A DNA stretch of 15,800 nucleotides from a virus (IMGVR_UViG_2693429605_000015:1-15800), one strand, 5' to 3'; positions 534 to 6,780 are shown, numbered from the stretch's first letter. The notes: generated by a model not told the origin, from the sequence alone. Numbers and translations: made by a program.

Positions 534-819
534 CGAAATTCTTCTCTTTAATTCCAGCGGATCTGATAGCTTTCATTACTGCAATTACCGTTTTGTCTCT
601 CCCATCCTCATAACCCATCGCATAAGCACCTTCTTCACCATCTTTCCAAAAGTCGTCATTCGATTCGGGCCAGTCGATATCCAGTTCAATAGCTGCTCGC
701 GATGCCTGCCATGCCTCCCATGCAATCTCGACCTTGATGTGCATAATCTTCATCACGTCACTTGAAACGTGATATTTGTTTTTAAACCATTCTTCAAACT
801 GCTTTCTTGATTCGTCCAT
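490..819 (-). CDS. Hypothetical nin-region phage protein (109 aa)
   Basis: ATG at 819 with GAGGG Shine-Dalgarno about 8 nt upstream; overlaps the ninB start by 44 nt, typical phage packing. No family recognised. Confidence 0.5.
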   Translation of the reverse strand: MDESRKQFEEWFKNKYHVSSDVMKIMHIKVEIAWEAWQASRAAIELDIDWPESNDDFWKDGEEGAYAMGYEDGRDKTVIAVMKAIRSAGIKEKNFDEANIHASQRSNQK

Positions 820-5039: not shown

Positions 5040-5408
5040 ATGGTTGGAACCGCTATAGCAAGCTTTTTTGGGATGTTGGCAATCTCGACAATTTACGGCT
5101 TAGCGCATGCTTTTATTGCGAAATCTCTATCAGAAAAAATAAGCCAGGCTTGGGCGCATAGATCAGCTCGTTTCATGATTCTAGTGATCATAGCAATACA
5201 AGGGATATCTGCATTTATCCTCTATGGTTCAAGCTTATACCTGTTGTATCAAGGCGCGACATTTACGCCTTACACCAGTGATTACGGAACTCTATACGAT
5301 GGTAGTGAAGACATCTCTATGGCTTGGATTGTCTTTGGTTTATCTATGGCCGTGTCTGTTGTAGCAGATATCATTAAGGTAATTCTCGTCTTAACCTTCG
5401 CTGACTAA
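5040..5408 (+). CDS. Small integral membrane protein (about 3 TM) co-transcribed downstream of cI, in the rexA/rexB position
   Basis: ATG at 5040 with AAGGGG SD 5 nt upstream, 18 nt after the cI stop; three hydrophobic segments (VGTAIASFFGMLAISTIYGLAHAFIA; FMILVIIAIQGISAFILYG; MAWIVFGLSMAVSVVADIIKVILVL). No recognisable similarity to lambda RexB from memory. Confidence 0.6.
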   Translation: MVGTAIASFFGMLAISTIYGLAHAFIAKSLSEKISQAWAHRSARFMILVIIAIQGISAFILYGSSLYLLYQGATFTPYTSDYGTLYDGSEDISMAWIVFGLSMAVSVVADIIKVILVLTFAD

Positions 5409-5494
5409 CCTATAATCCCGGCAGCAATAGCTATCGGGATCCACTTCACATATCCCGCATAAAAAGCACTGAACAAGCAGACACCGAAAAAATA

Positions 5495-5581
5495 AATATC
5501 CTTTGTATTCATTTGCTTATCATTATTTCATCAAAAATAAATACCTTGGGTATTTACACAATAAAATACCTACAGTATTCT
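5495..5581 (+). promoter_or_regulatory. OL operators and PL promoter
   Basis: AATACCTTGGGTATT (5540-5554) and AATACCTACAGTATT (5565-5579) share the OR half-sites; a third, weaker AATATCCTTTGTATT at 5495-5509. PL: -35 TTTACA 5553-5558, 17-bp spacer, -10 TATTCT 5576-5581. Confidence 0.6.
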
Positions 5582-5627
5582 TTAGCCATCAGCAGGACGC
5601 TGGAAGCCAAACGGAACAGATTGGCAG

Positions 5628-5668
5628 GCTCTTTAACATTGATGGGATTGTCCCGCCGAAATGCGGGA
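5628..5668 (+). promoter_or_regulatory. nutL: boxA (GCTCTTTAACA) plus boxB hairpin
   Basis: GCTCTTTAACA at 5628-5638 (matches the rrn/lambdoid boxA consensus as recalled), 12-nt spacer, hairpin TCCCGC-CGAAAT-GCGGGA at 5651-5668, identical to the nutR boxB. Confidence 0.6.
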
Positions 5669-6112
5669 ACTGAGTTTAACCAAACAGGAGGTGCCGTAAT
5701 GGTGCACTAACGCGGTTAGACCGCAGCCGAAAGGAAATGCAGCAGTAATGATGCTGCCCTGAGTCGCCATTGAGCGAGCCTGCTTAGCATCGGGTTAGGG
5801 TCAATATATTAAAAGTAGCTCCGGTAAAGCAGCGCGAATGCCAGACGCGCACCGGTTATCAGCGGCGATGAAGCGGCAGAGACTCAAGGGCATGAGCGCG
5901 CTCACTGCGAGAGTGTGAGTCAAAGAGTAGTTGGCTTTGGGATTGGATGAATGAGCAGGCTGATGCTCGACCAATGTATAAACAGCGCTCATGGCAAGCA
6001 GTAACCAATCTGCGCCTCAAGACAGCGTCACTGGTAGTGCGGGCGCTCTAACCAGTAAGCCGGAATTCAGCACCGGCCATCCAATCACCAAAGTCAATCA
6101 TCGGAGGTCAAC

Positions 6113-6385
6113 ATGACAGTAGTCATTACATATCTGGCTGACGATAACGCCAGAAATCGCCGCAGAGCACGCAGACAGGCTCAACGTGAGCAGGCAATGC
6201 AAGAACAGCGACTGGCGCGAAAAATTGCGCTAAAGCTCTCTGGTTGCGTCAGAGCAGACAAAGCAGCATCACTCGGAAGCCTTCGCTGCAAGAAGGCAGA
6301 TGAATGCAGTGGAAGTATTTGCCTGCCAAACGTAGCCATTTACGCGGCAGGCTACCGGAAATCAAAACAACTGACGGCGAGGTAA
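6113..6385 (+). CDS. N: N-type transcription antiterminator (P22 gene 24-like)
   Basis: N-terminal arginine-rich motif NARNRRRARRQAQREQ; C-terminal VAIYAAGYRKSKQLTAR resembles the P22 gp24 C-terminus as recalled; GGAGG SD; sits downstream of PL/nutL. Confidence 0.75.
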   Translation: MTVVITYLADDNARNRRRARRQAQREQAMQEQRLARKIALKLSGCVRADKAASLGSLRCKKADECSGSICLPNVAIYAAGYRKSKQLTAR

Positions 6386-6387
6386 TT

Positions 6388-6780
6388 ATGGGTCAGGAAG
6401 AAAAATATGAGCTTAAAAAGCTCATTGAAGAAGACGCCATAGAAGAAATTGCAGCATTAACAACAGCTATAAATAATATTAGGTATGCGCTAAATACGCT
6501 TATCTCCTCATGCGACAAAAATAGCAGGGAATTTTTGATACTTGGCGCAGCTCTAGGAATAGTTGATGCGGCAACGCTTCACCTAATTACTCATGACGAT
6601 ATTCTTATTGAGCCGTATGAAACATTACTGCTTGTCAGGCAAAAAATGGCTGATGCCGCAGCAAATGGAGACCTTCAACTTTACATCGACTTAAGGAAAG
6701 TATTAAGGCGAATGGTCAGAACTGAAGGAGATATCCCACTGAGCGATGCTAAACAAGGCATACAAGCAAAGCTGGAATGA
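6388..6780 (+). CDS. Hypothetical early-left protein (130 aa)
   Basis: ATG at 6388 three nt after the N stop, with GAGG SD; acidic/helical composition; no family recognised. Confidence 0.55.
   Translation: MGQEEKYELKKLIEEDAIEEIAALTTAINNIRYALNTLISSCDKNSREFLILGAALGIVDAATLHLITHDDILIEPYETLLLVRQKMADAAANGDLQLYIDLRKVLRRMVRTEGDIPLSDAKQGIQAKLE

Follow-up and report, generated by a model that had tools for sequence, protein, structure and literature searches.

Why is the interval between nutL and the N gene so long in this prophage, and what does it hold? The window, a 15,800-nt stretch of DNA, corresponds to the immunity and early-left part of a lambdoid prophage, whose early-left operon is read from the + strand. 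An initial annotation had described the interval as an unusually long, GC-rich, untranslated leader and proposed three possibilities: a structured leader with a regulatory role, an RNA gene, or an insertion in decay. The present analysis revealed that the long leader is a composite, made up of a portable RNA module of 250 nt and an enlarged form of the ordinary N-leader hairpin. On the strand transcribed from PL, the inserted block encodes a genuine structured RNA with about ten helices in about 220 nt. The idea of a structured regulatory leader or an RNA gene was supported in that the insertion carries a conserved structured RNA, but it had treated two separate parts as one.

Two sources of the extra leader length

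The same PL-nutL-N cassette is present in HK620, whose published annotation of pL/OL, nutL and N was transferred to the window by alignment (Table 1). With PL at 5553-5581, transcription would start at about position 5589, and the whole leader from the PL start to N spans about 524 nt. The HK620 alignment and the consensus scan bore out the earlier description, in which nutL lies about 40 nt past the PL start and N begins at 6113, and the proposed placements of the features were correct to within 1-2 nt. A boxA followed by a boxB hairpin, shortly after PL and before N, is found in this flank and not in the module. The distance from the end of nutL to the start of N is about 444 nt in the window versus about 107-108 nt in HK620. 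The interval is also GC-rich as described, with a GC content of 52-55% over positions 5600-6400 versus 36-41% on either side. A 901-nt query around the interval showed 99% identity to the Stx2c-converting phages Stx2_5044 and Stx2_EH1904, and the module itself matched a locus of E. coli O145:H28 RM12581 with 100% identity.

Table 1 Observed and predicted features in and around the nutL-N interval, in window coordinates
Feature	Position	Strand	Basis or remark
PL promoter, TTTACA-17-TATTCT	5553-5581	+	Consensus scan; equals annotated pL/OL of HK620
nutL	5627-5668	+	Near-identical to annotated HK620 nutL
nutL boxA, GCTCTTTAACA	5628-5638	+	HK620 alignment
nutL boxB, UCCCGC-CGAAAU-GCGGGA	5651-5668	+	HK620 alignment
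250-nt block, none in HK620-type leaders	5671-5920	+	Alignment with HK620, mEp213, Hafnia yong1 and Stx2_5044
Structured RNA module	5683-5931	+	Covariance model R1, 275.5 bits, full length
Shine-Dalgarno AGGAGG	5686-5691	+	Head of module
Predicted mini-ORF, AUG GUG CAC UAA (M-V-H-stop)	5699-5710	+	Signal conservation across copies
P1 hairpin, GCGG-UUAGA-CCGC	5712-5724	+	89% of cells paired; double changes in 3/4 pairs
P2 short hairpin, usually with GAAA tetraloop cap	5726-5735	+	86% paired; double changes in 3/3 pairs
P3 hairpin, GCAGCA-GUAAUGA-UGCUGC	5739-5757	+	96% paired; double changes in 6/6 pairs
Central three-way junction	5758-5800	+	CCY (5758-5760) / RGG (5798-5800) enclosing P5 and P6
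GAG, complement of invariant CUC 5883-5885	5761-5763	+	97% of cells paired; pairs barely vary
P5	5764-5777	+	99% paired, with double changes
P6	5778-5795	+	97% paired, with double changes
P7-P8-P9 arm, GCU/AGC, CCGGU/ACCGG, GCGCG-AAUGCCAGA-CGCGC	5818-5863	+	Covariation
Most conserved single-stranded stretch, CUCAAGGGCAUGAGCGCG	5883-5900	+	Family consensus; nearly invariant
3' hairpin, CUCAC/GUGAG, cap C-GAGA-G	5901-5919	+	Double changes in 3/5 pairs
N-leader long hairpin (predicted)	5935-6093	+	Ends 9 nt before N Shine-Dalgarno GGAGG
boxA-like string, GCGCTCTAACC	6043-6053	+	Within N-leader hairpin
GCCGG/CCGGC sub-hairpin	6059-6077	+	Within N-leader hairpin; recurs in relatives
N ribosome-binding site, GGAGG	6103-6107	+	Upstream of N ATG 6113
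N gene	6113-6385	+	90 aa; 88/90 residues (98%) identical to HK620 N

The extra length relative to HK620 came from two sources, namely a 250-nt block after boxB and the hairpin before the N ribosome-binding site, which spans 159 nt in the window versus 72 nt in HK620. The block is bounded by boxB (...GCGGGAAC) on its 5' side and by the shared sequence AAAGAGTAGTTGGCTTTGGG on its 3' side, and in the alignment its boundaries relative to HK620 are clean. Owing to the module, the distance from nutL to the N ribosome-binding site is about 250 nt greater than in HK620. The flanks were matched by 205 phage records, only two of which covered at least 80% of the 901-nt query; HK620, HK630, mEpX2 and about 200 further phage records had the flanks in common and were missing the middle. 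The leader is thus unusually long among its own relatives, whose N leaders proved shorter on comparison, and its structure is conserved. No copy of the module was found by the covariance model R1 (see below) in HK620, HK140 and CUS-3. Direct reading of the boundaries (5671-5690 versus 5905-5921) revealed neither terminal inverted repeats nor a recognisable target duplication, which makes a MITE- or IS-like mobile-element origin unlikely. Of the proposed decayed insertion, the insertion stood, being missing in HK620 and others, whereas the decay was contradicted by strong purifying and compensatory selection.

In this phage group, a long hairpin normally stands before the N ribosome-binding site, and the remaining ~160 nt are an enlarged form of it. 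The enlarged hairpin runs from CUUUGGG to CCAAAG and is closed by a helix of about 15 bp formed by CUUUGGGAUUGGAUG (5935-5949) and CAUCCAAUCACCAAAG (6078-6093). Such a hairpin was predicted in 17 PL-class loci with interiors of 72-224 nt, in which the closing helices differ yet stay complementary (GGUGACG/CGUCACC, GGUGUGGUG/CACCACACC, GAUGGUG/CACCAUC and others). As in lambda-type leaders, a long duplex conserved as structure is therefore located between nutL and the N Shine-Dalgarno. The lambda N-leader hairpin is an RNase III site that controls N translation. By its position, we take the window hairpin to correspond to this RNase III-sensitive hairpin of lambda, with cleavage here being putative.

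The GCCGG...CCGGC hairpin noticed initially is a recurrent sub-hairpin of this N-leader structure. The neighbouring string that had been described as a second boxA-like element is indeed present, but its resemblance to boxA is not conserved among relatives: Hafnia phage yong1 has GCACTAACC, and HK620 is without that stretch. A second nut or boxA at 6043-6053 was rejected on this ground, and the adjacent hairpin belongs to the N-leader structure. The flanks of the module, comprising nutL, the N-leader hairpin and N, are ordinary.

The inserted block belongs to a structured RNA family

Copies of the block with 69-91% identity are present in mEp213, Hafnia phage yong1, the E. coli phages 733R5 and 716R3, the Klebsiella phages RothC and RothD, phiKO2, Edwardsiella EPP-1 and Providencia PSTCR7lys, and an RNA annotation of it was absent from all these phage records. 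A covariance model, R1, was built on an eight-sequence alignment that already displayed compensatory changes. From IMG/VR, 120 loci were fetched with a 16-nt conserved pattern, supplied by the stretch CUCAAGGGCAUGAGCGCG, and then scored by R1. As a result, full-length copies were identified in at least 85 of the 120 loci, and at least 58 copies were found among species-representative genomes. Overall, viral contigs and genomes contained at least 140 full-length copies, essentially all of them from Enterobacterales. The named hosts among the matches listed were all Enterobacterales except for one 'Vagococcus' contig, which is suspected to be contamination. Pattern matches in Arthrobacter, Coriobacteriaceae and others failed the covariance model and are chance or unrelated. 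The module was present in 118 of 5426 complete E. coli genomes and annotated as RNA in none of them.

In an 82-sequence alignment, which was fitted to the structure of the model and so favours it, standard pairs occupied 94.2% of pair cells versus 28-48% with the partners slid by 1-3 columns, and double compensatory changes were found in 26 of 47 pairs. None of 500 shuffles reached any of the observed covariation measures, and an independent eight-sequence MAFFT alignment gave the same helices. Many of the pairs are invariant G-U, which would become A-C mismatches if the opposite strand were read, and this indicates that the RNA is read in the PL direction. Folding energies of the single sequence were unremarkable (z = 0.2 and 0.4 for the two strands); it is comparison among copies, and not thermodynamics, that supports the structure.

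A search of the whole window against Rfam 15 (4227 models, among them riboswitches, ribozymes and sRNAs of phages and enterobacteria) gave no match at the gathering threshold. For the region 5400-6400, searching at E values up to 5 returned only three implausible sub-threshold matches of 12-19 bits, and twelve other family members matched only two tRNAs. No literature on this element was found by sequence string or by topic, and it is possible that it has been described elsewhere. A paper on ten thousand viral structured RNAs (PMC10690425) makes no mention of lambda or antitermination, and a preprint on intergenic features from a language model makes no mention of phages. We rate the module as a new RNA class, where new means that it has no match in Rfam 15 and that nothing was found in the literature searched.

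Architecture of the module

The helices of the module are listed in Table 1. P2 varies in length and is missing in Providencia PSTCR7lys. The hairpin at 5739-5757 that had been pointed out beforehand corresponds to P3; it is real and far above chance, as all six of its pairs are doubly compensated across 80 sequences, and its loop follows the consensus GUnaUgA. In the central junction, refinement of the model together with mutual information paired Y5760 with R5798, found as C-G in 53, U-A in 23 and U-G in two sequences. In the P7-P9 arm, P9 is 99% paired with double changes in 5/5 pairs and P8 is 97% paired, and the loop carries a conserved GCCA.

The GAG at 5761-5763 and the invariant CUC may form a long-range helix or pseudoknot, and CCY (5758-5760) has an alternative partner in GGG 5888-5890. 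As the GAG/CUC and CCC/GGG pairs barely vary, covariation is equally compatible with a pseudoknot, a triple interaction and alternative states. The 3' hairpin was only 69% paired because two subfamilies were aligned out of register, and its cap in relatives is a GNRA tetraloop (GAGA, GAAA, GUGA or GUAA). A CGCG/UGCG pairing suggested for it by RNAalifold was replaced by CCAC/GUGG with the GNRA cap. The P3 loop recalls an anticodon loop and the 3' loop recalls the sarcin-ricin loop, but both likenesses were dropped as unsupported. The two GNRA caps, the multi-way junction and the conserved unpaired nucleotides suggest a compact tertiary fold rather than a base-pairing sRNA.

A start-stop frame at the head of the module

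The module opens with a Shine-Dalgarno site and a predicted mini-ORF of three codons. In a census of 132 distinct copies, 119 were anchored on P1 and 110 were scored; the anchored but unscored copies comprised two with TTG, two with ATA and five window-type copies that were mis-anchored. ATG was found in at least 110 of the 119 anchored copies, with TTG (two) and ATA (two) at the same position in others. Among the 110 scored copies, the ATG was located 12-13 nt before P1 in 104, the frame closed after one to three codons including Met in 105, and a Shine-Dalgarno-like site lay upstream in 101. The predicted element thus combines a Shine-Dalgarno, a start codon and a near in-frame stop at a fixed position. 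The encoded peptides (M, MK, MV, MKH, MHQ, MVH and others) are not conserved. Judged from these signals, what appears to be selected is ribosome loading with prompt termination at the foot of P1, and not the product.

The leader is therefore probably not wholly untranslated, as the initial annotation had it, although its other part, the lack of a conserved protein ORF, was sustained. Across 81 loci no ORF was conserved, and the stop-free runs in the module were short and variable; the longest had a median of 43 codons on the + strand and 61 on the - strand among 81 family members. The minus-strand ORF cluster of the window had only six members among the 81 loci, and single-base indels separate relatives within the interval. 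A few records call minus-strand ORFs hypothetical proteins; these ORFs were rejected as genes in view of their rarity (6/81 loci), short variable runs, indels and compensatory substitutions at the RNA level. Neither a conserved protein ORF nor a long leader that is the norm of the relatives, two findings that would have spoken against the original proposal, was thus observed, and structure is conserved.

Genomic placement

The module was always co-oriented with the neighbouring genes and located in lytic operons; for most copies, nutL, a put-like RNA or a Q-dependent terminator is no more than about 5-20 nt away. In the first of three positions it is found just after cI/PL, about 15-20 nt from nutL (of several nut types) or a put-like RNA, and is followed by N or a different early-left gene. 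Two such loci (L088 and L090) have put-like elements directly upstream of the module that are about 80% identical to HK022 putL. The second position is just after Q, which belongs to four unrelated families (PHROGs 304, 79, 127 and 753); here only a few bases, in a near-invariant GTT-TCTGGAGGG junction, separate the end of an intrinsic terminator from the Shine-Dalgarno of the module downstream. About a third of the copies are in a late-operon leader, beside Q and the late terminator. The third position, between the lysis cassette and the small terminase, holds about a fifth of the copies, and two Morganella copies follow an N-like gene. An intrinsic terminator was present at most 55 nt after the module in about 14 of 81 copies, and many of these also have one just upstream. 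The copy in the window and the other PL-class copies have no promoter of their own and no terminator after the module.

The genes downstream of the module differ (N, rdgC, tRNAs, holin and terminase). Modules that are 82-87% identical to each other occur in unrelated contexts, which points to an autonomous cassette spread by mosaic recombination. As the copies lie behind PL, which the repressor keeps off in lysogens, or behind late promoters past Q-dependent terminators, they should be transcribed in lytic growth only, either early or late.

Placement right after nut, put or tR' could also indicate a role in cis, which is a counterpoint to the autonomous reading considered below.

Possible function of the module and alternative explanations

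Our preferred reading, held tentatively and with slightly less than even confidence, is that the module is an autonomous RNA 'gene' inside operons, which would be processed and bind a partner, and not a regulator of N. We infer such a self-contained payload from the unrelated downstream genes, the coexistence of the module with N/nut, put and Q, and the hairpins or terminators that bracket it. In the window, the antiterminated transcript from PL would carry the module as its first part. A ribosome would load on its Shine-Dalgarno and AUG and terminate a few codons later at the foot of P1, and this ribosome-binding head might protect or chaperone the 5' side, guide folding, or deliver the RNA to the ribosome. 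Flanking hairpins would delimit a stable RNA of about 250-350 nt, with boxB, a put stem or a terminator upstream and the long RNase III-type hairpin or a terminator downstream. No terminator follows the module in the PL-class copies, and a free RNA could arise from them only by processing, for which RNase III acting at the leader hairpin is one candidate. The folded body and its conserved loops would bind a host or phage partner, for which the ribosome is the obvious candidate, and this would benefit the phage lytically. Taken as a whole, the explanation by a composite leader with an inserted portable RNA module, the autonomous reading included, is one to which we give somewhat better than even credence. 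A further step, in which the module represents a new phage RNA class that recruits a ribosome via its start-stop frame and, through its compact fold, acts on the translation apparatus or on a host defence or takeover target in lytic growth, is conceivable but rather unlikely.

Among the alternatives, a cis-acting leader element survives best, although it too is unlikely. The module would then condition its own transcript and have no free-RNA function. It might load a ribosome early and so couple translation to the antiterminated polymerase, shield a long untranslated leader from Rho or RNase E, or provide processing sites; in the window, it might also alter N autoregulation through the distance from nutL to the ribosome-binding site. 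We would only speculate that, if matters stand as in lambda, the longer distance could weaken this autoregulation. A cis function on antiterminated transcripts would explain the closeness of most copies to nut, put and tR', and the co-orientation of every copy with its operon, the strong Shine-Dalgarno/AUG at the head and the PL-class copies without promoter or terminator of their own are in line with it. It sits poorly with the unrelated genes downstream and with the copies placed in mid-operon between lysis and terminase genes (about a fifth) or, in Morganella, after N. N- and Q-modified polymerases are already Rho-resistant. For a ribosome-loading pad, a fold of ten helices, with its GNRA caps and conserved junctions, is also far too elaborate, and about 14 copies have a terminator close downstream, many with another upstream, like a stand-alone gene.

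It is improbable that the module works like a riboswitch, sensing a ligand or a state and thereby gating read-through into lytic genes. The leader position, the conserved unpaired junction nucleotides and the compact aptamer-type fold would suit such an element, as would the intrinsic terminator directly after the module in about a dozen late-leader copies; CCY, with two possible GGG partners, could act as a switch. However, most copies, the window's included, have neither a linked terminator nor a platform that sequesters a ribosome-binding site, and the hairpin adjoining the module in the window is also present in HK620, which lacks the module. In place of an expression platform with coherent downstream genes, varied genes were found, and a terminator within 55 nt in only about 14 of 81 copies. 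Polymerases that cross the module have already become resistant to terminators, and no known riboswitch model matches.

Still less probable is a ribozyme, self-cleaving or processing, by which the polycistronic transcript would be cut at the module. Self-cleaving ribozymes are common in phage operons, and the size and architecture of the module (GNRA tetraloops, a multi-way junction, invariant single-stranded nucleotides) resemble those of mid-size ribozymes; nevertheless, no Rfam ribozyme family matched even at E values up to 5, no conserved candidate cleavage site was identified, and the mini-ORF would be left without an obvious role.

There is very little likelihood that the module acts as put does, modifying RNA polymerase in cis for processive antitermination. 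It does occupy the niche of HK022 putL/putR, the leaders of long phage operons, as a structured RNA on the transcribed strand. Yet it coexists with nutL and N, with put-like elements just upstream, and with Q and tR', so that such a role would be redundant; it is three times the size of put and has no similarity to the HK022 PL/PR leaders. An antitermination device of the operon that replaces N/nut was likewise rejected, as the module is present alongside these systems.

Least credible of all is that the module has no function at the RNA level and is a selfish insertion, a decaying one or a small protein gene called in error: the clean boundaries versus HK620 and the minus-strand ORFs called hypothetical proteins in a few records are outweighed by compensatory substitutions that keep about ten helices in some 140 copies from many genera, by the missing terminal inverted repeats and target duplication, and by ORFs that are not conserved.

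Significance

Few regulatory regions in biology have been studied as closely as lambdoid early and late leaders, yet a conserved fold of about 220 nt has stood there unannotated, in at least 140 prophages and phages from many enterobacterial genera, Stx-converting phages included. If it is a functional RNA, it would be a new component of the PL and PR' transcription units and may affect N autoregulation and the timing of late genes. On the further reading, that of a new, ribosome-recruiting phage RNA class, the module would be an RNA-only accessory 'gene' that moves among the strongest-expressed lytic positions of lambdoid genomes, in the manner of protein morons. The fusion of a start-stop frame with a structured RNA is an unusual design that is open to direct study, and mEp213, which grows on E. 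coli K-12, offers a tractable model. The covariance model also lets annotators label what is now a recurrent prophage 'gap' or a spurious hypothetical protein.

Comparison with known systems

The leader of the window resembles lambda-type N leaders in its PL, its nutL with boxA and boxB, and its long hairpin just before the N Shine-Dalgarno. It differs by the 250-nt module, which has no counterpart in lambda or HK620, and by a hairpin interior twice the size of that in HK620. The lambda bar minigenes are two-codon ORFs in the PL transcript. The start-stop frame of the module is similar to these and to other such mini-ORFs in that a Shine-Dalgarno and an AUG are followed by a stop after zero to two codons in a PL-transcribed RNA. 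Unlike bar, it is found at constant spacing from a large conserved RNA fold, together with which it moves; it has no sequence relationship to bar and varies freely in its peptide and codons.

HK022 putL/putR are cis-acting antitermination RNAs (structure paper, PMC9378689). The module shares with put that it is a structured RNA on the transcribed strand in an early-operon leader. When R1 was run against the HK022 PL/PR region with filters off, the best score was 7.7 bits over 69 nt; homology to put was rejected on this score and on the difference between about 220 nt with about ten helices and about 70 nt with two stem-loops. In addition, the module lies downstream of put-like elements, nutL or tR', which makes it an addition and not a replacement, and it has a ribosome-binding site and a mini-ORF.

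Short PR'-tR' transcripts include the 6S RNA of lambda and StxS of Stx phages (PMC7547250). About a third of the module copies are in the same late leader, near Q and the late terminator. Unlike 6S and StxS, the post-Q copies lie after the late terminator, so the module would be made only when Q acts; it is also much larger, does not have the form of an Hfq-type hairpin with a U-tail, and occurs in PL leaders as well. An Hfq-type sRNA such as StxS or Pas was rejected, given a highly structured RNA of about 220 nt that no terminator follows in the window. The Pas sRNAs of EPEC are a different kind of RNA from a different part of the prophage, and no copy of the module was found in prophage PP2 of E2348/69, the strain in which they were described.

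ROOL and GOLLD are orphan structured RNAs associated with prophages (PMC5737381). Like them, the module is a conserved, compact, phage-borne RNA supported by covariation and an orphan as to function. It is much smaller and so far confined to Enterobacterales, and its place within lambdoid operon leaders, the mini-ORF at its head and the lack of an Rfam match set it further apart. Of the phage elements nearest to it, the module thus resembles put in location only, StxS and 6S in neighbourhood only, and bar in its mini-ORF only.

Genomic contexts of the RNA module

Copies of the conserved structured RNA (the RNA module) were found in several arrangements, and the coordinates of the features are collected in the table. 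At Q-class loci, where the module lies just after Q and the late terminator, a near-invariant ...TTTTGCGTT-TCTGGAGGG junction linked the late-leader terminator to the module and was kept across differing Q families and differing terminator stems. In phage mEp213, which carries two N genes, the module follows a second nutL-like boxB and precedes the second of these genes, which is of the HK620 type. In Morganella morganii H1r (L147, L191), ~90 nt separate an N-like gene from the module, which here follows the gene instead of preceding it; this is a fourth genomic context. In two loci the full copy is preceded, at a distance of ~70 nt, by a partial match to model R1, the covariance model of the module; these matches may represent a remnant duplication.

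Features in and around the RNA module and related N leaders
Feature	Location	Strand	Remark
ORFs overlapping RNA	window 5801-5992 and 5859-6020	-	
ORF overlapping RNA	L006 2416-2752	-	
Small hairpin	window 5921-5939		CAAAG-AGUAGUUGG-CUUUG
HK022 putL-like element	L088 1532-1642	-	~80% identity, directly upstream of module
HK022 putL-like element	L090 3180-3290	-	~80% identity, directly upstream of module
HK140 N-leader insert	L253 about 565-755		unlike RNA module; between N-leader hairpin and N RBS
Second, partial model match	L070 3580-3691	-	weak (27 bits)
Second, partial model match	L113 4628-4739	+	weak (27 bits)
Q-class junction (examples)	L006 2440-2480; L019; L095; L133		
N genes of mEp213 (n=2)	L002 394-726 and 1879-2151		differing types

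Annotated ORFs and the adjoining N leader

Some RefSeq genomes, as well as Klebsiella phage RothC, list minus-strand ORFs over the RNA as hypothetical proteins. None of these ORFs was conserved across the RNA family, and they are probably annotation artefacts.

In the window, the small hairpin and the long N-leader helix share an arm, 3' in the former and 5' in the latter, which makes the two structures mutually exclusive. Because HK620, a relative without the module, has this arrangement too, the small hairpin belongs with the N leader rather than with the module. In L118 and L077, the N-leader hairpin 3' of the module has tRNA T-arm-like strings (GGTTCGATTCCAG; GGTGGTTCGACTCCACAACCACC) in its variable interior.

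The N leader of phage HK140 harbored another insert of ~190 nt, with its own SD and start-stop (GGAGGATTTATGTGA), that gave no match to model R1; a 41-aa hypothetical protein is annotated over part of it. Start-stop heads may be a broader trait of inserts in such N leaders.

Put-like elements upstream of the module

Besides the HK022 putL-like elements, a related motif, GAACGGGCAACACUGGCAG, recurred; apart from L088 and L090, the loci with such sequences upstream of the module include L207, L186, L161, L212 and others. The elements or the motif adjoin the 5' side of the module in many prophages showing no boxA, which suggests that put-type antitermination is common among these Enterobacterales prophages.
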